A stretch of 64,000 bases of DNA from an uncultured Gammaproteobacteria bacterium (GCA_964418585.1 CAYQMG010000137.1:13327-77326); one strand, 5' to 3'. Counted from the first letter of the stretch, positions 3,190 to 54,610 are shown. Numbers and translations: made by a program. The notes: generated from the sequence alone by a model not told the origin.

Positions 3190-3203
3190 GAGGGGAGGGG
3201 AAT

Positions 3204-8819: not shown

Positions 8820-8830
8820 AGAGGATGTGC

Positions 8831-10039: not shown

Positions 10040-10204
10040 CGACCGGGACAAACAACGGCCCGGGGCCTGCGGGACCCGAATGAGGCGCGGTCCGTGCCCG
10101 GCCATGGTAGACTGCGGGCGTTCGGGCATTTCGGGTGGACGGGCGGTGGGCCGGTCCCTGATCCACGTCCGGTCTGAGGCTGTGGCCTGGAGGAGGAAAA
10201 ACAG

Positions 10205-25958: not shown

Positions 25959-28502
25959 ATGGAGACCACGCTTCACCCTTCGCAGCCAGTTGTCGAACCC
26001 ACCCCGTCCCGGCCGGCGTTGAAGCAACCTCGCAGCCTCACACCGCGGATTCAGCGGCTTCGGGACTACTACTTTCGGGGTGTTTCGCGGAAGTGGAACA
26101 ATGAATTCACAGCCTGGACGACAGGAACGCCCTGGGATGTCCAGTACGACGAGTTCAACTACTACATCGTGCCGGAGACCTATCCGTTTCTGCAGACATT
26201 TCGTTCTTCGTTTCGGCAGGTTGCGAGGCGGGTGGCGCTGCCTCCTGATTTCTGGAAGTGGCGTATCGTGGAGCGTCGTGCCTGGTTCATCAAGGAGGTG
26301 ATGGTCCGGTATCTTCCGCACGAGATCTTGCCGGGAGACCTGCTGGCTGGAGCGCGATTCAACATTCAGGCGTCGCGATGCTTGAATCGTGCGGAAGCGC
26401 GCGAACGGGATCGGCGGCTGTTGGGGCGGCGAGGGGCGCGTGCTCGGGTGAAGTGGTTTCACGATCACGGGTATGGGAATGCAGGTGCCACGAGTGGGCA
26501 TATCATCCCTGACTATGCTCGGGTATTGCGGGAGGGGTGGAAAGGCATTCACGCGGACCTGGAGGCCCGGTATCACGGGTTGTCTGCGCGTGAGCGGCGT
26601 TCGGAGAAGGGGGCGCAGCTTCGTGCGATGATGACGGCGGCGTTGATGCCTGGAGAACTGGCGGTTCGCTATGCATCTGAGTGTCGACGGCTTGCGGACG
26701 AGGAATCGGATCCGGGTCGGAAGGAGGAGCTTTTGACCATGGCCGGCAACCTGGATCGAGTGCCCTGGCAGCCGGCCCGCACTTTTTGGGAGGCGGTTCA
26801 ATCGTTGTGGATGACCCATTTGTTGGTGATGGCCGACGAGAACTACCCCGGGCCCGGGTTGTCGTTTGGTCGACTGGACCAGTACCTTTATCCCTACTGG
26901 AAGGCGTCCATCGAGGAGGGGATGAGCCGCTCGTTCGGCAAGGAGATCCTCGAGTGCTTCTGGGTCCACGCCAACACAGCGTATGACGCGATGATTCGGG
27001 TCGGAGCGAACCAGGGGATCACCGCGGGGTATGGCCAGCTTTTCAACATCGGCGGTCTTGGTCCAGGGGGTCGCGACATGACCAACGAACTCACCTGGGT
27101 GTTGTTGGAAGTGATCGACGAGATGAGCCCCATCCTGGAGCCCAAGCCCAACGTGCGGTTGCATCGAAAGACGCCTGAGCCGCTCCTGGACCGGGTGGTG
27201 GACATGATCGCCGGTAGTCAGGGCGCGCCGTTTCTTCTGAACTTTGACGAGCGGTCCATGGCGGGTCTGCTGCGGGAGGCCAGGGAAGCAGGGATCGAGC
27301 ATCTGATCAACGAGTCGAACGTACACGACTACGCCTCGGTGGGATGTTTGGAGAACACGATGGTGGGGAACGACCGGTCGGGCACGGTCAACCTGAACCT
27401 GAATCTGCTCAAGGCGGTGGAACTTGCCTTGAACGACGGTCGAGACCTGTTGCCCGTCCGGGACATGGTGACCGGCAAGGTGGAGCCGATTCGGCAGGCC
27501 GGGCCGAGAACCGGAGATCCCACCACCTTCACCACGTGGGAGCAGTTCTGGGATGCCTACGTGGCCCAGACCAGATACATCGTGAAGGCGGCGGTGGACC
27601 TGTACGAATTGACCGAGGCGGTGCGGGCGCGGTTTTCGCCCACGCCGTACCTGTCCTGCCTGGTGCGAGGCTGCGCCGAGAAGGCGTTGGACGTGACTCG
27701 AGGCGGTGCCGAGATCAACTTTGCGACCATTGAGGGGGTCACATTTGCGACCACGGTGGACTCGCTTTTGGCGGTGAAGTACCTCGTGTTTGACGAGAAG
27801 CACTGTACCATGGCGGAACTGGTCCGGGCGTTGAAGGACAACTGGGAGGGGCATGAAGTGCTCCAGGCCAAGGCTCGGTTCAAGGCCCCGAAGTATGGGC
27901 GGGACGACGACGAGGCGGACGCGATGGCCGAGCGGGTCATGGCGCTGTGGGCCGGGGAGACGTGGAAGCACAGGACCCGGTCCACGGGCGTTCAGTTCCG
28001 TCCTGGCATGTTGAGCTGGAACTACTGGGTGGGAGATGGCTATGTACTGGCCGCGAGTCCGGATGGGAGGCCCAAGGGGCGCTTCCTGTCCAATGCCATC
28101 TGCCCTTCGAACGGTGCCGACACCGAAGGTCCGACAGCCAACGCGAACTCGGTGGGCAAGGCCCTTGGGGGGAGGGCCGTCGGCAAGCCGGGCGACTGGG
28201 AGAGTTACCTCAACCATTTGCCCAATGGCGCCAGCCACACCATGACCTTCAATCCGTCGTTGCTTCGGGACCCGGAACATCGGGCCAAGTTCAAGGCGTT
28301 CCTGCGGGGCTATGCCGAGAACGGGGGGACCGCACTCCAGATCAACGTGCTGGACGCGGACATGCTCAGGGAGGCCCAAAGACATCCCCGCGAGTATCGT
28401 CACCTCCTCGTGCGCGTGACAGGCTACAATGCCTACTTCACCAGCATCGGGCGGGAGTTGCAGGATGAAATCATCGCTCGCGAGAGCCACAGCAAGTATT
28501 GA
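25959..28502 (+). CDS. Glycyl radical enzyme (PFL superfamily), substrate unknown
   Basis: 847 aa; C-terminal glycine loop LLVRVTGYNAYF; Cys loop YASVGCLENT (single Cys, GCxE); FWEAVQSLW, GRLDQYLYPY, PKYGRDDDEAD, ASPDGR. Confidence 0.93.
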   Translation: METTLHPSQPVVEPTPSRPALKQPRSLTPRIQRLRDYYFRGVSRKWNNEFTAWTTGTPWDVQYDEFNYYIVPETYPFLQTFRSSFRQVARRVALPPDFWKWRIVERRAWFIKEVMVRYLPHEILPGDLLAGARFNIQASRCLNRAEARERDRRLLGRRGARARVKWFHDHGYGNAGATSGHIIPDYARVLREGWKGIHADLEARYHGLSARERRSEKGAQLRAMMTAALMPGELAVRYASECRRLADEESDPGRKEELLTMAGNLDRVPWQPARTFWEAVQSLWMTHLLVMADENYPGPGLSFGRLDQYLYPYWKASIEEGMSRSFGKEILECFWVHANTAYDAMIRVGANQGITAGYGQLFNIGGLGPGGRDMTNELTWVLLEVIDEMSPILEPKPNVRLHRKTPEPLLDRVVDMIAGSQGAPFLLNFDERSMAGLLREAREAGIEHLINESNVHDYASVGCLENTMVGNDRSGTVNLNLNLLKAVELALNDGRDLLPVRDMVTGKVEPIRQAGPRTGDPTTFTTWEQFWDAYVAQTRYIVKAAVDLYELTEAVRARFSPTPYLSCLVRGCAEKALDVTRGGAEINFATIEGVTFATTVDSLLAVKYLVFDEKHCTMAELVRALKDNWEGHEVLQAKARFKAPKYGRDDDEADAMAERVMALWAGETWKHRTRSTGVQFRPGMLSWNYWVGDGYVLAASPDGRPKGRFLSNAICPSNGADTEGPTANANSVGKALGGRAVGKPGDWESYLNHLPNGASHTMTFNPSLLRDPEHRAKFKAFLRGYAENGGTALQINVLDADMLREAQRHPREYRHLLVRVTGYNAYFTSIGRELQDEIIARESHSKY

Positions 28503-28512
28503 ATCGGTCGAG

Positions 28513-29529
28513 GTGGAGACCCTCCAGGATGACGCGCGTTCCCGGGAGGGGCTGGTGCTCAACATCCAGCGCATGTCCACCGAGGACGGCCCGGGCATAC
28601 GCACCACCGTATTCTTCAAGGGGTGTACCCTGGCGTGCTACTGGTGCCACAATCCAGAGAGTATCTCCCCTCGCCCCCAACTCCAGTGGTTCGACGTCCG
28701 GTGTATCGGCTGCCGGACGTGCCTCGACGTGTGCCCGCAGCGCGCCCTCTCCGTTCTGGAGGACGCGGTTTCCATTCGGCGAGACCTCTGTCTGGGTTGC
28801 GGCACCTGCACCGACGCCTGCCCCTCCACCGCGCTTGAACTCCTGGGACGCCCCTGGTCAGTGGATTCACTGGTGCGCGAGGTCTCGAAGGATCGGGCCT
28901 ATTTCGAGCAATCCGGAGGCGGCGTCACGGTTTCCGGTGGAGAACCGGCGGTTCAGGCCCCATTTGTGGCGCGATTCCTCGCCGCCTGTCAGGAAGCGGG
29001 GTTGCACACAGCACTGGACACCTGCGGCATGTGCAGTCAGCGTGCACTCGATCGCCTGCTCGCGCACAGTGATCTGGTCCTGTACGATATCAAGGAGATC
29101 GACCCGGTGCGCCACCGCCGGTTCACCGGACGGAGCAACGAGCGGGTGTTGGCCAATGCGGCGCGGGTGGCGGAGTACATGGAAGGCGAAGGGCGGTCGA
29201 CCGTGCTCTGGATCCGGACGCCGCTCATCCCGGGGGCCACGGCCACGGAGGAGAACATCGACGGTATTGGGAAGTTCATCGCCCGAACCTTCGGGGATCG
29301 CGTGTCACGCTGGGAGATCTGTGCCTTCAACAACCTGTGTCGGGACAAGTACCTCCGACTCGGAGAGGCGTGGCGGTGCGTCGATCAACCGCTGCTCAGC
29401 CGGGAGGAGCTGGAACGGTTCGCAGACGTGGCCCGGGGGTCTGGTGTGGATCCGACCATCGTGGTTCCCACCGGGGCGGTTCGTCCGGACGGGGAGGGAA
29501 CGCCCAACAAGGAGAATGGGCCTGGGTAG
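28513..29529 (+). CDS. Glycyl-radical enzyme activating enzyme (radical SAM) with ferredoxin insert
   Basis: EDGPGIRTTVFFKGCTLACYWCHNPES; two extra CxxCxxCxxxC motifs (CIGCRTCLDVC, CLGCGTCTDAC); GGVTVSGGEP. Confidence 0.95.
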   Translation: METLQDDARSREGLVLNIQRMSTEDGPGIRTTVFFKGCTLACYWCHNPESISPRPQLQWFDVRCIGCRTCLDVCPQRALSVLEDAVSIRRDLCLGCGTCTDACPSTALELLGRPWSVDSLVREVSKDRAYFEQSGGGVTVSGGEPAVQAPFVARFLAACQEAGLHTALDTCGMCSQRALDRLLAHSDLVLYDIKEIDPVRHRRFTGRSNERVLANAARVAEYMEGEGRSTVLWIRTPLIPGATATEENIDGIGKFIARTFGDRVSRWEICAFNNLCRDKYLRLGEAWRCVDQPLLSREELERFADVARGSGVDPTIVVPTGAVRPDGEGTPNKENGPG

Positions 29530-29616
29530 CCGGTGGCATGGGGTCCGATTTCGTCGAGCAATGGTGACGGAGCCTGGACAGAGTGCGGTTCGGGGCGTCA
29601 CAGGGGGAGGAAGTCA

Positions 29617-30480
29617 ATGGCAAGGAAATACCGGTGCTTCGAGAACGGCGACATGGAGAAATTCGAGGCGGAGGCCAAGATTGCCCTGTTGGCCACCATC
29701 TCGGAGAGCCGTCAGCCCCATTTGACCTTCCTCTCGTCCCTTCAGGCCAAGACGACCAACACCCTGATGTTCGGGCAGTTTTCCGAGGGGCTGAGCAAGA
29801 AACACGTCAAGTGGAACCCGAACGCTGGATTTCTCATCATGAGTCTGGAGCGGGAGTTGTGGCGGGGTAAGGCCCGCTGGACTCACGAGGTGGGGGAAGG
29901 GGATGACTTCGAGTATTTCAACCGCAAACCAATGTTTCGGTACAACGCCTACTTCGGCATCCATACCGTCCATTACCTGACGTTGATCGAGGTTTCGAGG
30001 CGGCAGCGTCTCCCGTTGCCCGGTATCGTGGCAGGCTCGCTCAAGACCCTGGTCGCGCGGGGCGGAGCGCGGAGCGGTCGGGGCGGCGGCCGGGACGTGT
30101 CTCCCGTGCTTACTCCCTGGGCGGAGTCGCTGTTTCGGCGCCTGGATACGCTCAAGTTTCTCTCCTGGATAGAATCGGACGGGTACCCCACGATCGTCCC
30201 TGTGCTTCAGTGTCAGGCTGCGGACCCCGGCCGGCTCGTCTTCACGCCCACCCCTTTTTCCCAGGATCTCGAGGCGCTCGAGGCCGGTACCTCGGTGGCG
30301 GTTTTCGGGCTGTCCATGCAGATCGAGAACGTGTTGGTCCGCGGGATCTTCACCGGCTTTCGGCGCAGACGGGGAATCCGGTTGGGCCACATCGACCTCG
30401 AGTGGGCCTACAACTCCATGCCGCCCGTTCCGGGACAGATCTATCCCCCGGTGCCCCTCGAGCCGGTGCTCGAATCCTGA
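29617..30480 (+). CDS. Pyridoxamine 5'-phosphate oxidase-like (tandem split-barrel) protein
   Basis: Two related halves (KIALLATISESRQPHLTFLSSL / KFLSWIESDGYPTIVPVLQCQ) with split-barrel spacing; GGGGGAGG RBS. Confidence 0.72.
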   Translation: MARKYRCFENGDMEKFEAEAKIALLATISESRQPHLTFLSSLQAKTTNTLMFGQFSEGLSKKHVKWNPNAGFLIMSLERELWRGKARWTHEVGEGDDFEYFNRKPMFRYNAYFGIHTVHYLTLIEVSRRQRLPLPGIVAGSLKTLVARGGARSGRGGGRDVSPVLTPWAESLFRRLDTLKFLSWIESDGYPTIVPVLQCQAADPGRLVFTPTPFSQDLEALEAGTSVAVFGLSMQIENVLVRGIFTGFRRRRGIRLGHIDLEWAYNSMPPVPGQIYPPVPLEPVLES

Positions 30481-30680
30481 ACGCTCCACGGATCCGGCCC
30501 CGGAACGGGGCGGCGGCGTCCCGTGACTTCCCAACCCGATGGTGACCCCTGGAACCTCGATCCCGTCCCGGTGCTGTTCCTGCTTGCGTGTCACTTGCGA
30601 CAACATTAAAATCGCACTACTCTGGACCAGGACCCTGGCCCTGGACGAAGCGATCCTCGAGCACGAGACCGGAGAGAAAC

Positions 30681-32912
30681 ATGACCCCCACACAGCCTGC
30701 TCAGACCAAGGTGCCCGCATGGAAGGCCTACTTCAACCGGCTCGCCCGTGACCCCGCCGTGGCCCGGCTCCGGGGACAGGTTGAGAAGCTCCTCGCAGAC
30801 CTGGACGTGGTCATTCCCCTGGAGCATGGCGACGTGGACGGCGCTGCCTACGAATTGCTCAAGCGGCGCAAGGACGCCGACCCAAAGGAACTGGAGGCCA
30901 TCGACTTCATCCTCACTCACCGGCGATTGCTCGACGCTGGAGAAACCTTCTCTCCGCCCCGGTCGTTCCGTCTGCTTGGCACCGGCACACAACTTCACGG
31001 CCCTGCAGACTACGATCCTTCCGACAAGACCTTCCTGGCCACCCGACGCCTCACCCTGCTCGGCATTCCGATCCTCATTCTGGGGGCCTACCGGGTCACG
31101 CGCGACCAGAAGGGCCGGCTCCTCCCCCTGTCTCGAGTTCCTCTCGAGCCCCATCTCCTGGCCGGCAGACGGATCAAGAGGCGGCTCGTCTTCGCCGTGT
31201 TGGCGCTTGCGGTTCTGGGAGGGCTCTTCGTCTCACGCCCGGACATGGTGTCCTTTTCCTCCTTGCCCAGCGCGCTCCACATCGTAAATGGGCTCGAGTT
31301 CCCGGTCTCGGTCGCCGTGGGGGATGAGACGGTGAACGTCCCTGCACTCGGCCACGTGTCTCACCCGCTCAAGAAGGAGTACTACCATCTCGTGGCCCAC
31401 AACCGCGCGGGCGAGATCATGGAGGAGGAGAACGTGGACAACGCCTCGGGCGAAGGGGTGTTCACCTACAACATCCTGGGCGTTGCCCCCCTGTACACCG
31501 AGGTCGTCAGTTACGCTGCCGACGGGATTGCGGAGCGTTCCCGCACCTGGATGGCACTTCAGCGAACGCAGGAAGTCACCGGCGTTCATGGGGTGTTTGT
31601 GGCCGTCCCGGATCAGGTGCGGGTGCCGTTTTGGAAGGAGGCCGTGGAGCGGCGGTTCGTGGAGGTCGGACCAGGCGGTTGGCTGGATACCGTGCGGGCC
31701 CTGGAGAATGTGGATGACGCCTGGACCGTCCTGACCCGGACGATCGTGGCCGATCCGGAGAACGAGGCGGCTTATCGTGCCGGAGTGGATGTGCTCTATG
31801 CGATGGAGCCCAGGGACGCCATTCAGGCCGCGCGGATGTTTTACTCCAACAACTGGGATTCCACCAATGCCCAGCGCATGCTGATGTGGACGATGATCCG
31901 GGCGGCGGGGAGGGAAGGGGCCGTCGATGCGTACCAGCAGCTCCAGAAAATCGAGCCTGCCACCGCGATTGGCGCGTTGCTGACCGCGCAGGTGGAGCTG
32001 CCCGAGGCCGCGGCAAAACGCCTGGTGCCCGCGGTCAAGCTCTACTCCAAGGATTACTTCCTCCGTCTCGAACTCGGCCGGGCCTTCTATCTCCTGGGGC
32101 GGTTCGAGGACGCCGTGCGGGAGTTCGAGACGTTGGAAAAGCAGAACGAACGGGCGATTCGATCCTGTTATCGGGAGCACGCGCTTTCCCTGATCGCCCT
32201 CGGGAAGCGCTCCGAGGCTGCGCACCTGGTGGCGAATGCGGGCGATCTGGACGGCTTCCCGGTGGATTTCGAGTTCGCGCGCTTCTACGCCACTGTGACC
32301 GCAGGCGTTTCCACCGCACTGAAACCCTACCCATTCGATCACTACCTCGACCGGTCGTCGTTCTACCACCAGGATGAGGTCTATGCCGGAACCCTGTTCC
32401 GTGCACTCACTTCCAGGACCGTGCCCGATCAGGAGGTCCTGGACGCCCTCGCCAACGACACCCAGCGCAATCTCGTGCACCTGGCCGGCGTGATTGCGAG
32501 CGACCTGGACCTCGCCGTCGCCCTCACCCGCGACCTGCCGCTCGAGGCCCTGCGCAAGCTCGACGACGTATCCCTCATTCTGCTCGCCGGCGAGTTCCTC
32601 CGGCGCGGCGCAGAAGATGATGCCGGCGTATGCTTGAACGCGCTTCGCCTGTGGGCTCCCTGGCGTTCCGTCGTCGTTGCAGCGTTGAAGGAACAATCGA
32701 ATCCACCCGAGGTCCTCGACCTGGACCTGGAAATCCAGGCTGCCCTCAAGCTCGTGCAGGCGCGCAGGCTCGGAAAAGCACACAAGGAGTTCGACGCGCT
32801 GATCAAGGAAGCCCGGCGGCTGGACGTGGTCAGTGGAATCGTCACAGCAGCCATACGTTGGCCCATCTCCCCCCTACCGGGTCAGGCCCCGGCCACCCAA
32901 GCCGGGCGATGA
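30681..32912 (+). CDS. Hypothetical membrane protein with TPR-like C-terminal region
   Basis: 743-aa ORF with RBS; TM segments (RLTLLGIPILILGAYRV, LVFAVLALAVLGGLF); TPR-like LELGRAFYLLGRFEDAVREFE. Confidence 0.7.
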   Translation: MTPTQPAQTKVPAWKAYFNRLARDPAVARLRGQVEKLLADLDVVIPLEHGDVDGAAYELLKRRKDADPKELEAIDFILTHRRLLDAGETFSPPRSFRLLGTGTQLHGPADYDPSDKTFLATRRLTLLGIPILILGAYRVTRDQKGRLLPLSRVPLEPHLLAGRRIKRRLVFAVLALAVLGGLFVSRPDMVSFSSLPSALHIVNGLEFPVSVAVGDETVNVPALGHVSHPLKKEYYHLVAHNRAGEIMEEENVDNASGEGVFTYNILGVAPLYTEVVSYAADGIAERSRTWMALQRTQEVTGVHGVFVAVPDQVRVPFWKEAVERRFVEVGPGGWLDTVRALENVDDAWTVLTRTIVADPENEAAYRAGVDVLYAMEPRDAIQAARMFYSNNWDSTNAQRMLMWTMIRAAGREGAVDAYQQLQKIEPATAIGALLTAQVELPEAAAKRLVPAVKLYSKDYFLRLELGRAFYLLGRFEDAVREFETLEKQNERAIRSCYREHALSLIALGKRSEAAHLVANAGDLDGFPVDFEFARFYATVTAGVSTALKPYPFDHYLDRSSFYHQDEVYAGTLFRALTSRTVPDQEVLDALANDTQRNLVHLAGVIASDLDLAVALTRDLPLEALRKLDDVSLILLAGEFLRRGAEDDAGVCLNALRLWAPWRSVVVAALKEQSNPPEVLDLDLEIQAALKLVQARRLGKAHKEFDALIKEARRLDVVSGIVTAAIRWPISPLPGQAPATQAGR

Positions 32913-32977
32913 GCGGAAGCGCCTCGGCCTGGCCTCGGACGTTTCCCGGTTGACGTTCCTGACCGGGGCCGCCAAGC

Positions 32978-33015
32978 TGGTGCGAAGGTTGCGGCGACCT
33001 GGCCCGTTTCTTGCA
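32978..33015 (+). promoter_or_regulatory. Two tandem sigma54 -24/-12 promoter matches upstream of the activator gene
   Basis: TGGTGCGAAGGTTGCG (32978-32993) and TGGCCCGTTTCTTGCA (33000-33015), both GG-N10-GC. Confidence 0.6.
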
Positions 33016-33133
33016 CAGTACCGCCCGCGAAAACAGGCAGCCCGCCACCTGTCGTGGCAGGCACGCAGGCAACCCTCGAGTACACGCGGCCCCCGGGAAG
33101 GCCGCCGCGCAGAACCTGGGCGCATGGTAGGCA

Positions 33134-34486
33134 ATGGAAGGCAATCTCGACAAAAAGTTCCTCGAAACGATCCTCAACTGCATCGCCGACGGCGTGTTCA
33201 CCGTGGACAAGGACTGGAGGATCACCTCGTTCAACAAGGCCGCGGAACGGATTACCGGCGTTCCTTCCGCGCTCGCACTCGGCAAACGGTGCTCCGAAGT
33301 GTTCCACGCCGACATCTGCGAGCACGGCTGTGCGCTGCGCAAAACCGTGGAAACAGGCAAGGACCTGATCGACCTGCCCGCCAGGATACTCAATGCCCGT
33401 GGGCGCGGCGTCCCCATCTCCCTCAGCACATCGGTGCTTCGCGGCCCGGATGGTGAAGTCCTCGGCGCGGTGGAGACCTTTCGCGACCTCTCCGCGATCG
33501 AGACTCTGCGGCGTGAGATCAATAGCAAGTATACCTTCGAGGACATCGTCGGACGCAGCGACGCCCTCAAAAAGGTGTTCGCCATCCTCCCTGATGTCGC
33601 GGAAAGCGACGCCACCGTGCTGATCGAAGGTCCGAGTGGTTCCGGAAAAGAACTCCTCGCCCGTGCCGTACACAACCTCAGCCCCAGACGCAACGCCCCC
33701 TACGTCGTGGTCAATTGCGGCTCCCTCCCGGTCAGCCTGTTCGAATCCGAGCTGTTCGGCTATACCCAGGGTGCGTTCACCGATGCCAAGCGCAACAAGC
33801 CCGGTCGCCTCGCCCTCGCAGAAGGCGGCACCCTCTTCCTCGATGAGGTCTCCGAACTTCCACCTCCAACACAGGTAAAACTCCTCCGGGTCCTCCAGGA
33901 ACGCGAGTACGAACCCCTCGGCGCCGTCAAAACCGTCCGCGCCAACGTCCGAATCGTCGCTGCCACCAACCAAAGACTCGCAGAGCTCGTCACCCGCGGC
34001 GAGTTCCGCGACGACCTCTACTTCCGACTCGCCGTCGTCCGCCTCTCCATCCCCAGCCTCAAAGACCGAAGGGAGGACGTCCCTTACCTCGTCGAGCACT
34101 TCATCCGAAGGTTCAACGCAAAACGGGGAAAAAGCATCACCGGCGTCTCCCCACCCGTCATGGACACCTTGATGCGCTACGACTACCCGGGAAATGTCCG
34201 GGAACTCGAAAACATCATCGAGTACGCCTTCGTGCTTTGTCATGGCCGCATCATCGAAATGGTTCACCTGCCCGAAGAACTCCAGTCGTTCGCAAGAAAA
34301 CTCGGCACCAAGGCAGGGAGCCGCAACGGCACCAGACTCCAGTGGGCAGAAGCCGACATGATTCGATCCGTGCTCGAAAAGGTCGGAGGCCGCGTGGGCC
34401 TCGCCGCCAAGGAGTTGGGAATCAGTCGAACCACCCTCTGGCGCAAGATGAAGCGGCACGGCATCACCCTGTACGAGTTCAAGTAG
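33134..34486 (+). CDS. PAS-sigma54 enhancer-binding protein with Fis HTH; PAS carries C-x8-C-x3-C (OrpR-like)
   Basis: PAS (FNKAAERITG); CSEVFHADICEHGC; GPSGSGKE, ESELFG, GAFTDA, LFLDE, LLRVLQ, RDDLYFRL, PGNVRELEN; HTH GISRTTLWRK. Confidence 0.93.
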   Translation: MEGNLDKKFLETILNCIADGVFTVDKDWRITSFNKAAERITGVPSALALGKRCSEVFHADICEHGCALRKTVETGKDLIDLPARILNARGRGVPISLSTSVLRGPDGEVLGAVETFRDLSAIETLRREINSKYTFEDIVGRSDALKKVFAILPDVAESDATVLIEGPSGSGKELLARAVHNLSPRRNAPYVVVNCGSLPVSLFESELFGYTQGAFTDAKRNKPGRLALAEGGTLFLDEVSELPPPTQVKLLRVLQEREYEPLGAVKTVRANVRIVAATNQRLAELVTRGEFRDDLYFRLAVVRLSIPSLKDRREDVPYLVEHFIRRFNAKRGKSITGVSPPVMDTLMRYDYPGNVRELENIIEYAFVLCHGRIIEMVHLPEELQSFARKLGTKAGSRNGTRLQWAEADMIRSVLEKVGGRVGLAAKELGISRTTLWRKMKRHGITLYEFK

Positions 34487-34522
34487 CGCCAATGTTTCCC
34501 CCCGATACGACATCGCACCGAC

Positions 34523-34556
34523 ATGTTGCAATGTCGCAACGTTGTTTCTGAAACAT
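34523..34556. promoter_or_regulatory. Candidate upstream activating sequences (paired palindromes)
   Basis: GTTGC-N6-GCAAC (34525-34540) and TGTTTC-T-GAAACA (34543-34555), about 210-240 bp upstream of a sigma54 promoter. Confidence 0.55.
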
Positions 34557-34764
34557 TGTTCCAATCCTGGTCCACATGGGAACATCCTTCGGGCTGGTGA
34601 ACCCGAAAATCGAGCCGGTCTCGCTGTTCCAAGGCACCGGTGGGGCGCGAGGGGAGGCGGATGGGCGTTTGTGAGCGGACGATGGTGTGGTTCATGGGTG
34701 AGGAGGGGATGTTTCGAGGGAGGAGGGGGCCGATGTATCGAGAGTGGGGTTGGGCGTGGCGAAC

Positions 34765-34780
34765 TGGCCCGGAGGTTGCA
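34765..34780 (+). promoter_or_regulatory. sigma54 promoter TGGCCCGGAGGTTGCA
   Basis: GG-N10-GC with TTGCA, upstream of the two receiver genes. Confidence 0.6.
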
Positions 34781-34928
34781 GGCAATGGGCGGCGGAGCCG
34801 GTGGCCGGCGGGGGGAAGTTGCCGGACTCGGGGTGCCGGGTTTGGGGGAGGGGACGGGGCGGGCTGGGTGGTGCATGGGGGAGGGGGGTCCAGTCGTTCG
34901 AGCAAGCGGGGGAGGGCGAGGCGTTTTC

Positions 34929-35468
34929 ATGGCAAGGGCGAAGGTGAAGACGGTCCTGGTCGTGGACGACGAGCCGCACCTCAGGCACTATCTTCGGATG
35001 GTGCTGGAGGATGCCGGGTACTGCGTGTTGACAGCCGCAGACGGGCTCGAGGGATTGAATCTGGCTCGGGCGCACCGGCCGGATTTGGTGTCGGTGGATC
35101 TGGCCATGCCGCGGAAGACGGGGTACCGGCTGCTCGTGGAGATGCGGCGTGAGGAGGGGTTGAAGGACATTCCGGTGGTGATCGTGACAGCGCATGCCCG
35201 CGATTCGGTGGGGGTACGTGCGCTCACGGAGCTTCGAGCGGCGGGCTACGATCTGTCGCGGAGCGACTACCTGGAGAAGCCGGTTTCGGCCTCCACCTAT
35301 TTGGCGGCGGTGGCGCGTGCACTTGGCGTGGAGGGGCGTGAGGATTCGCGTTCGGTGGGGGAGTTGCGGGAGTTGTTGAGGAACCGCATCGAGGACGCGG
35401 GGCCTGAAGCGCTGAAGCGGGCGCTGGAGGCCCTGGCGAGGAGTTTGCCGGGGGAGGAGGAGCGGTGA
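34929..35468 (+). CDS. Response regulator receiver protein with short helical C-terminal extension
   Basis: VLVVDDE, PDLVSVDLAMP, IVTAH, LEKP. Confidence 0.9.
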   Translation: MARAKVKTVLVVDDEPHLRHYLRMVLEDAGYCVLTAADGLEGLNLARAHRPDLVSVDLAMPRKTGYRLLVEMRREEGLKDIPVVIVTAHARDSVGVRALTELRAAGYDLSRSDYLEKPVSASTYLAAVARALGVEGREDSRSVGELRELLRNRIEDAGPEALKRALEALARSLPGEEER

Positions 35469-35546
35469 TCGAAGGGGGGAGGTTTGTCGGCCGTGGGTCG
35501 GAGCTGAATCCGAGAGACGATCAACTTGATGAAAGGAGAGGAGAAG

Positions 35547-35954
35547 ATGACGGCGAGTGCCGGGAAGAAGAGGATACTCATTGTGGAGGATGAGCCGCAC
35601 GTGGCGATGTATCTGGAGACGTTGCTTCAGGATCACGGCTACGAAACGGAGATAGCGGCGAACGGGCGTGAGGCGTGGGAGCGAGCCCGGAAGAAACGGC
35701 CCGACCTGGTGTCTCTCGACATCACGATGCCGGAAGAGTCGGGGATCCGGTTCTATCGGCGCCTGAAGGAAGACCCTGACCTGGCCGACGTCCCGGTCAT
35801 TGTGGTGACCGCGGTGACCGGCTACGGTGGGGACCCGGAACCATTCAAGAACTTCCTGGACACTCGTCGACAAGTTCCACCGCCTGAGGGCTTTTTCTCG
35901 AAGCCCATCGATCGGGATGCTTTCCTGGAAGCAGTGGCCCGGCAACTCGCCTGA
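35547..35954 (+). CDS. Single-domain response regulator (CheY/DivK-like)
   Basis: ILIVEDE, PDLVSLDITMP, VVTAV, FSKP. Confidence 0.92.
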   Translation: MTASAGKKRILIVEDEPHVAMYLETLLQDHGYETEIAANGREAWERARKKRPDLVSLDITMPEESGIRFYRRLKEDPDLADVPVIVVTAVTGYGGDPEPFKNFLDTRRQVPPPEGFFSKPIDRDAFLEAVARQLA

Positions 35955-36165
35955 ATGGCCGGTCTGGGAAAGGCGCGTTCCAGCTTGTTCCCTGCCTCGC
36001 AAGATGCTACCGTTCGCATGAGTCCGTTTGGCGCTCGTTGCGGTTCCTGTCCAGGCCGCGGGGCCGAGGTGTATGATACGGGCTCGAGGCGGTGGCCGCG
36101 GCGCGGAGAAGGGTCGGCGTGCGGGGTCGCGTGCCGGGGGGGGCGTCGTTTCGAGGAGGATGCGC

Positions 36166-37749
36166 ATGACTGCCGGTGGTCGGAAATACATCCTGGCGGT
36201 GGACCTCGGCACCTCGGGGCCCAAGGTGGCGTTGTTCGATGCGGGTGGGACGATGGTGACTTCGTGTTTCGTCCCCACACCGACCATTTTGCTCCCAGGA
36301 GGCGGTGCGGAGCAACGGCCGGACGACTGGTGGCAGGCCATCGTTCGGGGCACCCGTGAGGTGGTATCGGCGAGCGGGGTGTCTCCTGCGGAGGTGGTGG
36401 CGATCGGGTGTTCGGCGCAGTGGTCCGGCACGGTCGCGGTGGACCGGGCGGGTCGGCCGTTGATGAACGCGATCATCTGGATGGATTCTCGAGGTGCGCC
36501 GTACTTGCGCGAGATCGGGGAGGGGGCGTTCAAGATCGAGGGGTATGCGTTGCGCAAGCTGGTCTACTGGCTGCGGCTTACCGGAGGATTGCCGGGGCCG
36601 TCTGGCAAGGACGCCATTGCCCACATGTTGTTCATCAAGCATGAGCGACCGGAGGTGTACGAGGCCACGGACAAGTTTCTCGAGCCATTGGACTACCTGA
36701 ACTTGCGCATGACAGGAAAGGCCGCGGCCTCTTACCATTCCATCTCGCTTGCCTGGGTCACGGACAACCGGCAGGTCGGCTCGGTGCACTACGACGATCG
36801 TCTCATTGCCATGACGACCATTGACCGGGACAAGTTTCCTGACCTGCTGCCGGTGGATGCCGTGCTCGGGCCGCTCACTGCCGAGGCTGCCGGGGAGCTG
36901 GGGCTGACGGAGGCGACGCAGGTGGTGATGGGTGCGCCGGACCTTCATGCTGCAGCGGTGGGCTCGGGTGCGGTGGACGACTATGATGGGCACCTGTACA
37001 TCGGTACCTCCTCGTGGATCACTTGCCATGTGCCGTTCAAGAAAGTGGATGTGATCCGCAACATTGCCAGCCTGCCATCGGCCATCCCGGGCCGGTATTT
37101 CGTGGCCGACGAGCAGGAGACCTCCGGGGCCTGTCTGAATTTCCTGCGAGACAACGTGTTCTTCCCTTCTGACGAGTTGGAGACCGCGGCGCCGGATGAC
37201 GTGTTCCAACGTTTTGACCGGATGGCGGCTCGAGTTCCGCCCGGGTCGGGCAAGCTCATCTTTCTCCCATGGCTTTACGGGGAGCGGACACCGGTGGAGG
37301 ATCGGTTTGTTCGGGGTGGTTTCGTGAATCTTTCCCTGGATGCCACTCGAGCGCATATGGTCCGGGCGGTGTTGGAAGGTGTGGGATACAATCTCCGGTG
37401 GCTGTGCGGTGCCGTGGAGCACTTCATTGGGAGGCCGTTCGCCCGTTTGAACATCATCGGAGGCGGTGCGAAGTCGGACGTGTGGTGCCAGATTCTGGCG
37501 GACATCCTGGATCGAGAGATTCGGCAGGTGCGTGATCCGATCATGGCCAATGTGCGGGGAGCGGCCTTTCTGGCCGCGCATGCCATGGGTTTTCTCGACT
37601 TCTCTGACATTCCCGGGCGCGTGTCCATTGCGCGAACGTTCCGACCCAACCCGGAGAATCGGGCGATCTACGATGAACTCTACGAACAATTCGGCCGGTT
37701 GTATCGAGCCAACAGGCGCATCTTTGCTCGATTGAACCGAACCCAGTGA
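36166..37749 (+). CDS. FGGY-family carbohydrate kinase (xylulokinase-like)
   Basis: [59 protein letters not shown]; GAGGAGG RBS. Confidence 0.93.
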
Positions 37750-37768
37750 GCCTTCATGGAGCAGGACG

Positions 37769-39277
37769 ATGGACCCAATCGCGTTTTCGACCAGGTATCT
37801 TTCCCGGGTGGACCCTCGAGTGCTGCGTTTTCTGGAGCGGCAGCTACGGAAGTTGCCGCCTGTGCGGCGTATGATTGAAGCGGAATACGACAAGCTTCTG
37901 GGCGACATCGAGGAGGAGGTGAAGCCCTACCGCAAGGAGTATGGGTCCCTGGATCGGCTTCCCAAGGAGGGGCGGAGCCGAGAGGACATCCTGGCGGAGA
38001 TGGAAGCGATTCGGGACCGGGAATCCGCGCGCTGGCGGGACGGGTTGGTGTCGGGCGCGGTCTATCACGGGGACGAGGGGCACGTGGATTTCCTCAATCG
38101 GGTTTATGCGATCAACTCGCAGGCCAATCCGCTTCACTCGGACCTGTGGCCGAGCACCACGCGGTACGATGCCGAGGTGGTCGCCATGACTGCTCACATG
38201 CTTGGGGCGGATCGGACAGGCGACGAGATCTGCGGCACGGTCACCTCGGGCGGGACCGAGAGTATCCTGTTGGCCATGAAGAGCTACCGGGATCGCGCTC
38301 GAGACACTCGAGGCATACGGCGGCCGGAGATGGTGGCGCCGGTGACTGCGCATGCCGCGTTTGACAAGGCGTGCCAGTATTTCAACATCGAGAAGGTGAC
38401 CGTGCCGGTGGATGCGAGTGGGCGTGCGGTGGTGTCGGAGGTCAAGGCGGCGATCTCGAGGAACACGGTGGTGGTGGTGGGGTCGGCCCCCTCTTTTCCT
38501 CACGGAGCCATCGATCCCATCGAGGAGATGTCTGCCCTGGCCGCCGAGCGGGGGATCGGATTCCACACGGACGCCTGTCTCGGCGGTTTCGTGCTTCCCT
38601 GGGCCGAAAAACTGGGCTACGACGTGCCTCCATTCGACTTTCGTCTTCCCGGCGTCACCTCCATCTCGGTGGACACGCACAAGTTCGGGTATGCCGCCAA
38701 GGGGACATCGGTCGTGCTGTATCGTGGACGGGAGTTGAGGCATTATCAGTACTTCACGACCACGGATTGGCCGGGCGGGATCTACTTCTCTCCCACGTTT
38801 GCAGGCAGTCGTCCTGGTGCGTTGAGTGCTGCGGCCTGGGCGGCGATGGTGAGCATGGGAGAGAAAGGGTATCTCGATGCCACGAAAAAGATCCTGGAGA
38901 CGGCGGCCCGGTTTCGAGAGGCGGTGGAGGCGATCCCGGAACTCGAGCTGGTCGGCAATCCACTTTGGGTGATCGCGTTCCGGTCACCATCTCTGGACAT
39001 CTACCAGGTGATGCAGAACATGACGGATCGAGGTTGGAACCTCAACGGGCTCCACAAGCCTCCGTGCGTGCACATCTGCATCACCCTTCGTCACACCCAG
39101 CCGGGTGTGGCCGATCGGTTCGCCCAGGACCTTCAGGCTGCAGTCGCGGAGGCGAAGCAGCGTCCTGGAGTTCGGGAAGGGATGGCGCCGGTCTACGGGA
39201 TGGCAGCCACCATGCCGCTTCGGGGCCTGGTTGGTGAGATGTTGAAGCGGTACATGGACCTGCTCTACAAGGTGTGA
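37769..39277 (+). CDS. spl: Sphingosine-1-phosphate lyase-like PLP-dependent enzyme
   Basis: [59 protein letters not shown] (PLP Lys), FAGSRPG; N-terminal helical extension typical of S1P lyases. Confidence 0.8.
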
Positions 39278-42200
39278 CCCCCCATTCGGGCCTCGAGGCC
39301 GCGCACTTCGTCCGGGCGGTTCAGGGCTTCCCACAGGCGCATGGCCAGGCCGAACGCGCGAGCGGCGCGGATTTTCTCGCCTGCTGCCTCGCACCGCTCC
39401 CCGGCGCCCTGGATCATCCACGCATCATCTTCCTCCACCACGCCCAGGGTCGCCAGGTGCTGGTCAGCGCGCTCGAGGTGGTGGTCGAACGCTTCCCAGT
39501 CCTTGCGCTCTGCGTGGCAGCGGGCAAGGGCCGCGTGGAAGGCACCGAGGACCCGACGGTGGCCTTGCTTCGTCAGCCGTTCTGGCACGCCTGAGAGCAG
39601 TTCCAGTGCCTCGTCGAACCGGCCCTGCCGGATGCGGACCGTGGCCAGGTTGAGGGTGGGAACCGCCCACATGCCGGCCTCGGTGTCGCGTGCCTTTTCT
39701 GTGGCCTTGCGATAGGCCCGGGCGGCGCGTTCCAGGTCTCCGGTGTACCGTGCGATCTCCCCTGCCTCGTTCAGGAAGAAGACCAGGGCGTGCTTGCCGC
39801 CGATCCGGTCGATCAAGGTTTTGGCCTGCCGGAGGTAGGAGAGGGCCTTGTCCGGATCCCGGTCGTCGTACAGGGCCAGGCGTCCCAGACCGCGGAGTGC
39901 ATCCGAGACTCCGGCCAGGTGGCCGTGCTTGCGGCCCAGGGTCATGGCTTTCTGGAAGTAGTCGCGTGCCTGTTCGGTGGCGCCGGTCTGCTGCGCCACG
40001 TGTCCGAGGAACACCAGGCAGGACACCTGGCGATAGGAGTCCCCTTCCTTTTCGTACAGTTCCAGCGCTCGCTCATAGAGTTCCACGGTGCGTCGGGTCA
40101 GGCCCTGTTCCCAGGCCACGTTGGCCAGTCCACGAAGGCAGTGGGCCGTTTCCCTCCCCTCGTTCCGCAACACCAGTTGGGGGAGGGCCGCCTGGTACAG
40201 GGCCTCCGCAGTCACGTAGTCTCCACGGTATCGCGCCAGGTCCCCCTTGAGACGCATCGCGCTCGCGGCAAGACGGTTCCACTCCCCACGCCGCGCAGCC
40301 TCCTCGATCCGGCGGATGTACTGCGCCACCGCTTCCGGCCGCTCCTGGTCCAGGTCCATTTGGGCCAGCAGCAGCCACCCGGTACCAAGTCGGACATCGA
40401 GGCCTTCGCCGCCAAGCGCACGAATCGCCTCCTCTCGCCTTCGAATGAGTACTCGAGCTGCGTGATAGTCACTGCTCTCCCTTCTTTGCTCGGCAGCCCG
40501 TAGGAGTGGCTGGAGACAGCGCTCGAATTCTCCTGCAGCAAAGTAGTGGCGTCCGATCCGCTCTGATATCCCTGGTTCCGACTCCCCGTAGCGCTTGCGC
40601 AGCATGTTGGCGCAGGCAAGGTGATGGCTTCTGGCCCGTCCCCCATCCCGGGCTGAGCGCTCCAGGCTTTCGCGCAGCATGGCATGAACGAAGGACCAGA
40701 AAATCTGTTGGGGCGACCGACCCGCCCGTTTGCCCAGACTGATACGGACCAGTCGATGGGCAAGGAGGTTGTCCAGTTGACCTTCTGGAAAGGTCAGTCC
40801 CGCTTCTGCACAGGCCGCACGCCACTCCTCGAGCAACACGGTCTGGCCCAGGGCTGCGGCCAGCTCCAGCGCGTGGTGTGCAGTCGGTGGTTGGCCCTGC
40901 ATGGCGCGCTGAATCCGGGCGGTCCACACCTGATGGATGTCGTCCGGGAGGGTGAGGGGGACGCCCTGCTTGAGCACGAATCCCTTGTCTCCGGGGACCA
41001 GGACGCCGCGCTGGACCCAGTCGCCGATGAGCTGCACGGCGAACATGGGATTTCCGGCTGTGCGCGCTTCCACCCGGCTTGCGAGGCGCGGCTCGAGGCC
41101 CAGGAGTTCGCGAACAAGCCGGGCATGGTCGGCCGGAGAAAGGGGCGGAACGAAAATGCCTCGAGCGTCGGGGCTTCCCATGAGTTTGTCGAGGAGTCCG
41201 GTCTCGTATGGTCGTTCCGCCAGCGCGTCGTCCTGGGCGGTGATGAGGAACAGGACGCGGGGCAGGGGGTCCTGGAGATGGTTCAAGACGTGGTAGACGA
41301 AGCGAAGCGAGTCCCCGCCCCATTGCGCGTCGTCCAGCCACACGATGGCAGGACGCTCCTCGGTCAGTTTCTCCAGGTAGCGGCCGATGACCACGTAGCG
41401 TTCGGCCGGATTCCGGAATCGTACCGGCCGCTCACGCTCCTCCTGGTCGTCGGACCGGACGAGCAGGGCGGGTTTCATGATTTCCGCCAGAGCTTGCCAC
41501 TCGTAAGAGTCGGTCACTCCCAGGTCGCCAAGCAGGCGCTCGAGGCGTTGCTCGGCCTCGCTCAGAGACAGGCCCACGCAGCGGGTGAATCGTGCCAGCA
41601 TGGCCGGTAGGCCGTGAGCCGGGCTCTGGTCCGGTCCGTGCGTGGCGGTGAGGACTCGAGCGCCACCCACGTCCAGTGCCCGTTCCGTCATCCACTCGGC
41701 CAGGCGGCTCTTGCCGGTCCCCGCAGCGCCGTGGATGAGCACCAGCCGAGGCTTCCGCTCCTCGTGCACCTCGTGCAGCGCCTGCCAGATGAGATCCCGT
41801 TCCCGCTCCCGATCCACGAAGGGGATGGTTCGGATTCCGTACAGGCCGAGCCCGGCTCCTTCGAGCAAGATGGTGTGTTCGGCCGGTGTTTCGGTCCGCC
41901 AGGATTCAGGCAGGGGAGGGGTGACCACCGGAGGGAGATCATAGTCGGATGCGACGCTGCTCGAGGTGGCTTCGCCGGCGACCAGCGTGATGTTCTCCAG
42001 GGCCTCCTCGGTGTCCACTCCCAGGCGCTGAGGACGGAATTCGTCCATCGGCGCATCGAGCGTCGCCGGGGCCGGTCGCTCGACACGGTTCCCCTCCAGG
42101 TCGCTTGAAATGGGGGGAGGTCCCGATTCACTCGTCCTGTCCGGGTCGCCTCGCTCCTGATCGAACCAGAGGGATTGCGGTCGAGGCCCGGGTTCGACCG

Positions 42201-43275
42201 GTTCGGTGATCAACCTCGAGATACCGCGGCGGTCCACTTCGGAGCGCCATGCTGTGCCTTCTGTGCCCGGCAGTTCTCCCGCTTCCGGGTGTATCGTTTG
42301 AATGGCGAGAATTTCTCCTGCTGCTTCCTCTTGCAACGAGTCGTCCGCTTCCTCCAGATCCTCGAGAAGGGAGAGAGCATAGGCAGCGTCTGCAGCGAAC
42401 TGAAACCGATTTGCAGGCTTTTTTTCCAGGAGCCGGAGCACCCAGGCCGCAAACCCGGACGGTATTTCGAACAGGGGCTCGAGCGCCGGAGCGGGATCGT
42501 ACCAGTGGGCCTGGGCGAGTTGGAGCGCACTGGGTCGCTCGAAAGGCGGTTTGCCGCAGACCATCTCGTAGGCGATACAGCCGAGGGCGTACAGGTCGGT
42601 CCACGGACCGAAATCACGCCACTGAGCTGCGAACTGTTCCGGCGCCATGTAGATCGGGGTTCCCATGAGGGGAACCGCGGGGTCCAGGTCATCTTCAGAG
42701 TGAGCGCTGTCGTCGGAGTTCCCGGGGAATCCCGGAAGGCGTGCGTGGCCCATGCGGCGCATGGCGTGGGCGATACCGAAGTCCGTGAGTTTCAGACCTT
42801 CCAGGCTGCGGTCTTTCGGGAGGAGCACGTTGTCCGGCTTGAGGTCCAGGTGAACCACGCCTCGAGCGTGTGCGTGGGCCAGGGCGTCGAGCAGCAAGGT
42901 CAGCACCCCTCGGACCTGTTTCCATCTGCGCATGGGCAAGATCTGGGCGAGCGTGCCGCCGGCCATGAACTCCATTGCGAGAAAAGGGGCGCCCCGGCGC
43001 AAACGGCCCTTGCTAAGCCACTGGGCGTCCGCGGACACGGTGCCGTCATCGTAGATCAGGATGATGTTGGGATGATTCAGCCCCGCAACCGCACGGACCT
43101 CGTTGAGAAACCCCGCTCGATAGGCCGGATTGTCCGTGTGCTCCTCGGTCATCACCTTGATGGCCACAGGCAGGTCGCGGGCAGGATGGCGCGCCTTCCA
43201 GACGTCCGCCATACCCCCTCGTCCAATGGGCTCGAGCAGTTCGAAGGGGCCGAGCATGATGCGGTTGGATGTCAC
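39265..43275 (-). CDS. Ser/Thr kinase + P-loop ATPase (STAND-like) + TPR protein
   Basis: [36 protein letters not shown]; Walker A GAAGTGKS, Walker B WLDD, GNPMF; C-terminal TPRs. Overlaps the spl 3' end by 13 nt. Confidence 0.9.
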
Positions 43276-54145: not shown

Positions 54146-54610
54146 ATGGCAGGCCCGTGCGTGGGACCACTGCTCGATGTGAGGAACGCCGTGCCGGCAG
54201 ACCGCAAACACGAATGGAACGCGCCCGAACGACCCTCGAGGGAGGATACTGGACCGCTTCCGGGTGCGTGCGAGCCCGACCTCGAGTCGGACGGCCTGCC
54301 GTGGGACGACCCGGACAGGGTCGCGGCCATTCCAATCGAGGACGCCATCGACCTCCACACGTTTCGCCCCGGTGAAACAGCCTCGGTGGTGGGCGCATAC
54401 CTCGAGGAGGCGCATGCTCGCGGGTTTCGGGAGGTCCGAATCATTCATGGACGGGGCAAGGGGGTGCAGCGACGGATCGTTCGTAGCGCACTGGACCGCC
54501 ACCCCCTGGTGACCGGCTTCCAGGACGCGCCGCCCGAACGTGGCGGGTGGGGTGCAACGATCGTGTGGCTCTCTTCTCGTCGAAGCAGCCGGGAGGGTGG
54601 TGGACCTTGA
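54146..54610 (+). CDS. Small Smr (MutS2 C-terminal-like) domain protein
   Basis: IDLHTF, EVRIIHGRGKGVQRRIV, GGWGATIVWL. Start codon uncertain. Confidence 0.9.
   Translation: MAGPCVGPLLDVRNAVPADRKHEWNAPERPSREDTGPLPGACEPDLESDGLPWDDPDRVAAIPIEDAIDLHTFRPGETASVVGAYLEEAHARGFREVRIIHGRGKGVQRRIVRSALDRHPLVTGFQDAPPERGGWGATIVWLSSRRSSREGGGP

Follow-up and report, generated by a model that had tools for sequence, protein, structure and literature searches.

Gene organization of the locus

We analyzed a stretch of 64,000 nucleotides from an uncultured Gammaproteobacteria bacterium (GCA_964418585.1, CAYQMG010000137.1:13327-77326; hereafter the window), in which a gene for an FGGY-superfamily kinase is directly followed by a gene for a homolog of sphingosine 1-phosphate (S1P) lyase (SPL). 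The two genes probably form a cassette that phosphorylates and then cleaves 2-amino-1,3-diols, and long-chain sphingoid bases seem to be the likeliest substrates. The features around them are listed in Table 1. Open reading frames (ORFs) were chosen by third-position GC content (window G+C 64%). The longest ORF of the kinase begins at 36028, and translation probably starts at the ATG at 36166, which is preceded by GAGGAGG; residues of the kinase are counted from this ATG. The kinase stop codon occupies 37747-37749 and the lyase ATG lies at 37769, giving a gap of exactly 19 nt, as the initial annotation of the window had it. This spacer, with its ribosome-binding site, is compatible with co-transcription of the two genes. 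The same annotation stated that the window has no sphingosine kinase of the DAG-kinase type. We obtained the same result, as DAGK_cat (PF00781) had no match among the window ORFs scanned.

A glycyl radical enzyme (GRE) cassette (25959-30480) lies on the same strand and ends about 5.7-6.6 kb before the kinase start, which agrees with the distance of about 6 kb given in the initial annotation. That annotation had joined the GRE, the kinase and the lyase into one system; we treat the GRE in a section of its own below.

Table 1. Features in and around the kinase-lyase locus (positions in the window).
Feature	Position	Strand	Evidence and remarks
MopE-repeat protein, 2059 aa	19562-25741	+	Cu-binding_MopE repeats
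GRE, 847 aa, PFL2/dehydratase type	25959-28502	+	PFL-like 9e-125, Gly_radical 1e-21 (Pfam); separate module
Radical-SAM GRE activase	~28513-29529	+	TIGR02494 302 bits, above cut-off; CX3CX2C; separate module
PNPOx-like protein, ~288 aa	~29614-30480	+	PNPOx_N 1.2e-6; third gene of the GRE cassette
unk774, 774 aa	30588-32912	+	No Pfam family over threshold; faint TPR matches only
PAS / AAA+ sigma-54 activator / HTH_8 enhancer-binding protein	33134-34486	+	Sigma54_activat 1.7e-64, PAS_4 1.6e-12, HTH_8
Candidate sigma-54 -24/-12 element TGGCCCGGAGGTTGCA	34765-34780	+	1 mismatch to TGGCAC-N5-TTGCW; weak
First receiver-only response regulator, ~179 aa	34930-35468	+	Response_reg 4e-22; ATG at 34930 (start read from sequence)
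Second receiver-only response regulator, ~135 aa	35548-35954	+	Response_reg 3e-22
FGGY kinase, 527 aa	36166-37749	+	FGGY_N 1e-37, FGGY_C 2.4e-26 (Pfam)
Kinase-lyase spacer, 19 nt	37750-37768	+	GGAG-type ribosome-binding site; read from sequence
S1P lyase homolog, 502 aa, soluble, PLP-dependent retro-aldolase	37769-39277	+	PDB 3mad StSPL E = 6e-205

Conservation of the kinase-lyase pair

Two sets of loci were surveyed. For the lyase-anchored set, one genome per GTDB species was scanned and the best 80 loci were kept (54-85% identity, 10-kb flanks). The kinase-anchored set comprised 80 metagenome loci (54-63% identity, 6-kb flanks). An FGGY gene was found beside the lyase gene in 71 of the 80 genome loci. 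Among the nine loci without it, five were cut by a contig end no more than 270 nt from the lyase and four were true absences, so that the pair was present in 71 of 75 informative loci. Similarly, the lyase gene was directly downstream of the kinase gene in 54 of the 80 metagenome loci; nine loci were cut and 17 had no lyase (54/71 informative). The kinase gene preceded the lyase gene in 122 loci (median distance 63 nt), and in two loci (L075 and L079) the order was reversed with the genes still adjacent. This adjacency is far beyond chance.

The loci carrying the pair came from at least nine phyla (Myxococcota, Chloroflexota, Desulfobacterota, Bacteroidota, Spirochaetota, Acidobacteriota, Bacillota, Actinomycetota and WOR-3). 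The nearest relative of the window locus, L001, belongs to a metagenome-assembled genome (MAG) of Myxococcota, and its lyase has 85% identity. This match points to Myxococcota as the probable source of the window. In L075, a Bacillota MAG, the lyase is 87% identical to the crystallized lyase of Symbiobacterium thermophilum (StSPL) and the kinase gene lies 14 nt downstream of it. Therefore, the lineage of StSPL itself carries the kinase too. The retention of the pair in at least nine phyla, together with its adjacency even where the order is swapped, supports the view that the FGGY gene is functionally tied to the lyase. Our literature search, whose coverage was incomplete, found no paper on an FGGY kinase, xylulokinase or carbohydrate kinase paired with an S1P lyase, and an earlier description is possible. 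Nor did it find a relevant paper on a bacterial sphingosine kinase or one that assigns a partner kinase to bacterial S1P lyases.

When all ORFs of the 80 genome loci were clustered, only the lyase and the kinase were common to the loci. Neither this clustering nor a Pfam search of 64 downstream and 77 upstream neighbors revealed a third gene conserved beyond single clades.

In ten Chloroflexota loci, including Anaerolineales, the gene adjoining the lyase belongs to a second, divergent FGGY lineage that is 31-39% identical to the window kinase (L030, L047, L056, L060, L065, L070, L073, L074, L077 and L079). Its residues at the substrate-specificity positions described below read M-[V/L/T/A]-x-D-[F/W] in seven of the eight aligned sequences, and the remaining one has Q first. 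This lineage represents either an old split or an independent recruitment. We also considered whether a DAGK-type kinase had displaced the FGGY kinase in some loci and rejected it; no DAGK-type kinase lay beside the lyase in the five loci scanned for one (L008, L015, L071 and the cut loci L027 and L072). L057 is a further locus without the FGGY gene.

Identity of the lyase

The lyase of the window depends on pyridoxal 5'-phosphate (PLP); S1P lyases belong to PLP fold type I and are group II decarboxylase-like. It could be aligned with StSPL (PDB 3mad) over residues 24-502, with 685 bits and E = 6e-205, and it matched the human, yeast and Burkholderia SPLs with E values of 1e-129 to 1e-115 (390-436 bits; human 435, yeast Dpl1 390). 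In the same PDB comparison, the nearest decarboxylases scored far lower than the SPLs (MfnA about 92 bits and GAD about 75). Twelve residues of StSPL have been described as forming the Schiff base or contacting PLP and the phosphate or head group (PMC10243590), and all 12 are kept in the window lyase. The Schiff-base lysine and PLP-binding residues K311, H310, D274, H201, G168, T169 and S353 of StSPL correspond to K305, H304, D268, H195, G162, T163 and S347, and the phosphate and head-group contacts Y105, N126, H129, K317 and A103 correspond to Y99, N120, H123, K311 and A97. Over 123 lyase orthologs, ten of the 12 positions are invariant, among them the equivalents of Y99, N120, H123 and K311. 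The other two vary conservatively, the position of A103 being sometimes G or S and that of T169 sometimes S. No transmembrane segment was predicted in the window lyase.

On every feature that can be tested in the sequence, the PLP enzyme is, as the initial annotation had proposed, a member of the S1P lyase family, and it is not a relative of the decarboxylase type. StSPL is a soluble enzyme that cleaves S1P in vitro and in blood, and its authors stated that its natural function is unknown (PMC3148216). From the homology with StSPL, the window lyase is predicted to cleave S1P or dihydro-S1P to phosphoethanolamine and a fatty aldehyde.

Subfamily and specificity of the kinase

The window kinase belongs to the FGGY superfamily, as it keeps D13 (GlpK D10), the catalytic D259 (GlpK D245), T281 (GlpK T267) and the G-rich motifs (GlpK G310 and G411). 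Its identity to known members is low, at 29% to Escherichia coli XylB and 22% to GlpK. XylB was the best NCBIfam match with 261 bits against a cut-off of 380, GlpK reached 122 against 590, and the kinase was below every equivalog cut-off. Five positions determine specificity in FGGY kinases, namely R83, E84, Y135, D245 and F270 of GlpK (Zhang et al. 2011, PMC3245297). In the window kinase these positions are W86, S87, Y127, D259 and W284. The exact string W-S-Y-D-W was found in 93 of the 133 clade members, compared with M-H-F-D-V in XylB and R-E-Y-D-F in GlpK, so that aromatic and small residues stand in place of the polar and charged contacts of the sugar kinases. A clade-specific insertion of about 22 aa is also conserved behind the specificity tyrosine.

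Both the scores and the specificity residues place the kinase outside the XylB and GlpK groups. Because it falls below every NCBIfam cut-off and has a specificity signature of its own, the kinase is, judged by its sequence, a distinct FGGY subfamily with a presumably single function. We found no homology to the sphingosine and long-chain-base kinases (DAGK_cat), to which the FGGY fold is unrelated. The kinase may act like a sphingosine kinase without belonging to that family. The initial annotation regarded it as a non-homologous sphingoid-base kinase feeding the lyase. The conserved linkage and the distinct subfamily make the feeding role well founded, and the substrate may be either a long-chain base or a smaller 2-amino-1,3-diol.

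Proposed pathway

In the first of two steps, the FGGY kinase would transfer phosphate from ATP to the hydroxyl at C1 of a 2-amino-1,3-diol, most likely a free long-chain sphingoid base (sphinganine, sphingosine or phytosphingosine). In the second, for which a close homolog has been assayed, the lyase would bind the 1-phosphate, form an aldimine via Lys305 and cleave the C2-C3 bond in a retro-aldol reaction. This would release phosphoethanolamine together with an aldehyde, a fatty one in the case of a sphingoid base. Because neither step needs O2, the route would run in an anaerobe without the GRE.

We assign a probability of about 0.6 to the reading that the kinase and the lyase form a cassette for 2-amino-1,3-diols with long-chain sphingoid bases as the most likely substrate. 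Its parts differ in strength. It is very likely that the two enzymes act in sequence in one pathway, and likely that the kinase product, a 2-amino-3-hydroxy-1-phosphate, is the substrate of the lyase. For a long-chain sphingoid base as the natural substrate, the chances seem to be about even. In its fullest form, the proposal is that the W-S-Y-D-W clade consists of sphingoid long-chain-base kinases which, with the soluble lyase, make up a mobile, O2-independent two-gene cassette for sphingoid-base catabolism in soil and sediment bacteria from at least nine phyla, and that in some lineages another branch, composed of an aminotransferase or dehydrogenase and a RuBisCO-like protein, handles the same 1-phosphate. 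We hold this extended version only tentatively, at slightly under even chances.

Clues to the substrate

The other branch came from the kinase loci without a lyase. Among the 17 such loci, five have the kinase gene, then a gene for another enzyme and then a gene for a RuBisCO-like protein that is closest to the MtnW/YkrW enolases (2e-78 to PDB 2zvi). The interposed enzyme is saccharopine-dehydrogenase-like in L142, L159, L164 and L165 and a class-III aminotransferase in L163 (L163 3964-11583, L164 899-5055 and L165 5995-10145). The kinases of these loci share W-S-Y-D-W. Their identity to the nearest lyase-linked kinases (63-67%) falls within the variation of the clade, and they nest inside the lyase-linked clade in a neighbor-joining tree. 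We infer that the kinase product has a phosphate at C1, an amine at C2 and a hydroxyl at C3, and that it would have one of two fates, namely cleavage by the lyase or deamination to a 2-oxo-1-phosphate such as RuBisCO-like proteins handle. In these five loci, the same phosphorylated intermediate may be channelled into a different, so far undescribed pathway. Further genes there encode MFS and TetR proteins in L163 and an SBF-family transporter in L159.

Two further gene contexts were found in single clades. In nine loci of Polyangia/Myxococcales (L038, L044, L045, L048, L052, L053, L058, L063 and L064), a polytopic membrane protein of the DUF1295 family is encoded directly after the lyase, with its start within a few tens of nucleotides of the lyase stop. 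It has a weak ICMT match, and DUF1295 belongs to the steroid-reductase/ICMT clan. In seven Polyangia loci, one to three genes for DctP/TRAP solute-binding proteins lie directly upstream of the kinase gene. An aldehyde dehydrogenase gene was found downstream of the lyase in three of 64 loci. The activity of StSPL on S1P, the access tunnel of SPLs, the aromatic pocket of the kinase, DUF1295 and the aldehyde dehydrogenase are all hints of a lipid substrate.

Alternative explanations

The strongest alternative keeps the same two steps and changes the substrate to a small, water-soluble 2-amino-1,3-diol or aminopolyol, such as an amino-alditol or a short amino-diol. The products would be phosphoethanolamine and a short or hydroxylated aldehyde, and the S1P activity of StSPL would be a side activity. 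Small polyols and ketoses are the substrates of the FGGY kinases that have been characterized (PMC3245297). The W-S-Y-D-W kinases are in part paired with MtnW-like proteins, whose known relatives act on small 1-phosphates, DctP/TRAP binding proteins are encoded directly before the kinase in seven Polyangia loci, and both enzymes are soluble. Against this, StSPL depletes S1P in blood (PMC3148216), and the access tunnel of SPLs is narrow and hydrophobic (PMC10243590). In the kinase, the pocket positions are aromatic (W, Y and W) and not charged, and the DUF1295 membrane protein follows the lyase in Polyangia. Sphingoid bases are also by far the commonest natural 2-amino-1,3-diols. On balance, we consider a small substrate unlikely, with perhaps a little more than one chance in four.

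Several observations nevertheless count against the assignment of the cassette to sphingoid bases. The lyase is not adjacent in 17 of the 71 informative kinase loci. No ceramidase, fatty-aldehyde dehydrogenase or acyl-CoA synthetase gene is conserved beside the pair. To our knowledge, no FGGY kinase acts on a lipid, and the kinase and the lyase are both soluble. RuBisCO-like proteins usually act on small sugar-type phosphates, so that their presence in five loci hints at a small soluble substrate, as do the DctP/TRAP genes. Because the loci with DUF1295, like those with DctP, are all of one related clade, each of the two contexts amounts to about one independent observation. The regulatory model given below is affected as well: the -24/-12 matches over the whole window were not above those in shuffled sequences (29 vs 23.7), the element at 34765 is not clearly conserved in L001, and it is synteny with L001 that points to regulation by the sigma-54 activator.

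Another explanation is that the FGGY protein is an ordinary xylulokinase-like sugar kinase, that its adjacency to the lyase reflects co-regulation or hitch-hiking, and that the lyase uses S1P from another kinase or from uptake. XylB is indeed the best family match, and the 17 informative kinase loci without a lyase would fit. However, the score is below the XylB cut-off, the identity is 29%, and the M-H-F-D-V of XylB is replaced by W-S-Y-D-W. No xylose isomerase or sugar transporter gene is conserved near the pair, and the adjacency extends over at least nine phyla and survives inversion of the gene order. This explanation is improbable. Still less credible is a reading in which the kinase makes a phosphorylated amino acid and the PLP enzyme, as a group-II decarboxylase, removes its carboxyl group instead of carrying out a retro-aldol cleavage: the Pfam family of the enzyme is Pyridoxal_deC and its top NCBIfam model is the MfnA tyrosine decarboxylase, but the MfnA score of 217 bits is under the cut-off of 299, SPLs in the PDB score 370-685 bits against about 92 for MfnA, and the SPL-specific residues Y105, N126, H129, K317 and S353 are invariant.

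The glycyl radical enzyme cassette

The initial annotation proposed that the GRE takes part in one anaerobic sphingoid-base system with the kinase and the lyase, in which it would process the vicinal diol or amino-alcohol or the 2-hydroxy-aldehyde. The GRE lies on the same strand as the pair, about 6 kb away, in what seems to be an anaerobe, and it has a GCxE loop of the eliminase type. It is a genuine GRE with its own activase: it has the GCLE cysteine loop at residue 462 and the RVTGY glycine motif at residue 819, and the adjacent TIGR02494 activase has CX3CX2C. It did not fall into any of the known functions compared (HypD, CutC, HpsG/HpfG, indoleacetate or 4-HPA decarboxylase, and PFL). 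The best match was HypD, with a score of 390 against a cut-off of 1100, and the other models missed their cut-offs by more.

We surveyed the co-occurrence of the GRE with the pair in both directions. Homologs of the GRE, the activase and the PNPOx-like protein were found by tblastn in none of the 160 kinase or lyase loci. In 32 of these loci, the sequence upstream of the lyase extended over 9.3 kb or more. Conversely, an SPL gene was found in none of the eight loci of GRE homologs. L001 keeps the order of unk774, activator, two response regulators, FGGY kinase and SPL without the GRE cassette; its genes further upstream are unrelated and lie on the opposite strand. In the window, four genes including a regulator separate the GRE module from the kinase-lyase pair. 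Terminator-like matches in the stretch between the GRE and the kinase were not above shuffled sequences, and none was found after the cassette on the plus strand.

Homologs of the GRE with 72-77% identity abound in Spirochaetota, Syntrophales, Anaerolineae, Deltaproteobacteria and others, and by sequence they form a large uncharacterized clade. In the eight loci surveyed, the GRE usually shares a conserved unit with its activase, a PNPOx-like protein of about 282 aa and a preceding GntR/FadR regulator; the copy in the window is without the regulator. The gene of 280-284 aa follows the GRE and activase in L081, L083, L084, L167 and L168; in L169 it is located close to the GRE. We found no literature on the pairing of a GRE with a PNPOx-like protein. 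We also asked whether unk774 could bridge the two modules and rejected this idea, as unk774 shows no homology to the 779-aa gene that follows the GRE cassette of L168 and occurs in L001 without the GRE.

Because there is no cross-genome linkage of the GRE to the FGGY and SPL genes, which the initial annotation itself had named as the observation that would speak against its proposal, we dropped the GRE from the model. It is almost certain that the GRE is unrelated to the kinase-lyase pair, and a joint system of all three is highly implausible. The GRE-activase-PNPOx-like cassette is an independent, widespread module that lies nearby by happenstance.

Two near-identical loci, L084 and L085, represent one Syntrophales contig in which genes for a glycerol kinase and a GlpD-like FAD dehydrogenase precede the GRE cassette and are translationally coupled to it (L084 6869-14410). 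The FGGY gene there has the R-E-Y-D-F signature and is followed by the GlpD-like gene; it is therefore a glycerol kinase and not a member of the lyase-linked clade. There are hints that the GRE clade may act on a substrate related to glycerol or glycerol phosphate.

Regulation and other genes of the window

A redox-sensor module had been described between the GRE and the kinase. Regulators are indeed present, namely a PAS/sigma-54 activator and two receivers, whereas redox sensing is not established. The activator is syntenic in L001 at 88% identity, along with unk774 (64%) and the second response regulator (81%), and the first response regulator is kept there as well. Outside L001, the activator and receivers were not found beside the pair in other lineages. 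Candidate sigma-54 elements occur at 33000 and 34765, the latter within the 440 nt that separate the activator gene from that of the first response regulator. In this lineage, the activator and the two receivers may control the pair.

A convergent gene on the minus strand (39265-43275) overlaps the last 13 nt of the lyase gene. It encodes a 1336-aa protein with Ser/Thr protein kinase, AAA_16 and TPR domains, and L100, L101 and L105 encode a kinase-TPR protein resembling it downstream of their FGGY kinase gene. The initial annotation had further listed PI-PLC-like, carboxylesterase and secreted HAD genes as fitting lipid scavenging. Pfam found none of these in the ORFs tested, save a weak HAD-like match (52945-54096, E = 0.017).

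Three genes for multihaem c-type cytochromes lie at 7989-11659 (cytochrome c7/c3, Geobacter CxxxxCH motif and NapC/NirT-like), and an RND efflux pair (1714-6290) adjoins this cluster. The cytochrome cluster, the RND pair and the GRE fit an anaerobic, metal- or electrode-respiring lifestyle. The MopE-repeat protein upstream of the GRE has eight Cu-binding_MopE repeat matches together with CBM20 and galactose-binding-like domains. A second large protein with many Cu-binding_MopE repeats (61636-63999, at least 788 aa) runs off the window end. A 702-aa ORF on the minus strand (59486-61594) encodes a homocysteine S-methyltransferase domain fused to a methylenetetrahydrofolate reductase domain. An Eco57I-type N6-adenine methylase/restriction-modification protein is encoded at 54547-57282, in the stretch of the window with the highest G+C (0.68).

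Comparison with known systems and implications

The eukaryotic route through SphK1/2 or Lcb4/5 and SGPL1/Dpl1 is the closest known system. In both, C1 phosphorylation (proposed here) would be followed by PLP-dependent cleavage of C2-C3, and the lyase is a true homolog (1e-129 to the human enzyme and 1e-115 to Dpl1). The kinase here, in contrast, is an FGGY protein of the actin-like ATPase superfamily and not DAGK-like, the lyase is soluble without an N-terminal membrane anchor, and the two genes lie in an operon. StSPL (PDB 3mad, 3maf and 3mau), all of whose active-site residues are identical in the window lyase, was studied as an isolated enzyme, whereas its ortholog group travels with an FGGY kinase. 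The kinase shares with XylB, GlpK and GntK the two-domain fold, the catalytic Asp, the DxGT/GTS/GGG motifs for Mg/ATP and W103 of GlpK. It differs from these sugar kinases in its 22-29% identity, the W-S-Y-D-W string, the insertion of about 22 aa and its context of a PLP lyase instead of sugar genes.

Methionine salvage, in which a kinase yields a 1-phosphate that passes to the MtnW/YkrW enolase, resembles the five loci with an MtnW-like protein after the orthologous kinase. The deaminated kinase product, a 2-oxo-3-hydroxy-1-phosphate, would resemble the substrates of MtnW-type enzymes. However, the kinase is FGGY and not MtnK, an aminotransferase or saccharopine-dehydrogenase-like enzyme is interposed, and this branch is absent from the window. 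The GRE has RVTGY, GCLE and a dedicated activase with extra ferredoxin-like clusters in common with the GRE eliminases and dehydratases (HypD, CutC, the B12-independent glycerol dehydratase and IslA/HpsG). It is unlike them in its scores of 250-390 bits against cut-offs of 1000-1100 and in the features of its clade, a conserved PNPOx-like partner of about 282 aa and usually a GntR/FadR regulator. With the misleading association removed, it stands as a member of a separate, widespread and uncharacterized family that deserves a study of its own.

The kinase-lyase cassette would thus be a variant of the known S1P degradative pathway, in which the kinase is of a superfamily that is not known to supply S1P lyases with substrate. 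The bacterial lyases have been crystallized and proposed as therapeutics, but what they do in free-living bacteria was described as unknown (PMC3148216). A kinase of another superfamily that is conserved beside the lyase in at least nine phyla offers a directly testable answer on this role. If the proposal is true, FGGY kinases would reach beyond sugars and polyols, and this one would be the first lipid kinase of the superfamily. It would be a non-homologous replacement for the DAGK-like sphingosine kinase and would explain the natural role of StSPL. The cassette would then imply an O2-independent turnover of sphingoid bases or amino-diols in sediments, soils and anaerobic digesters.

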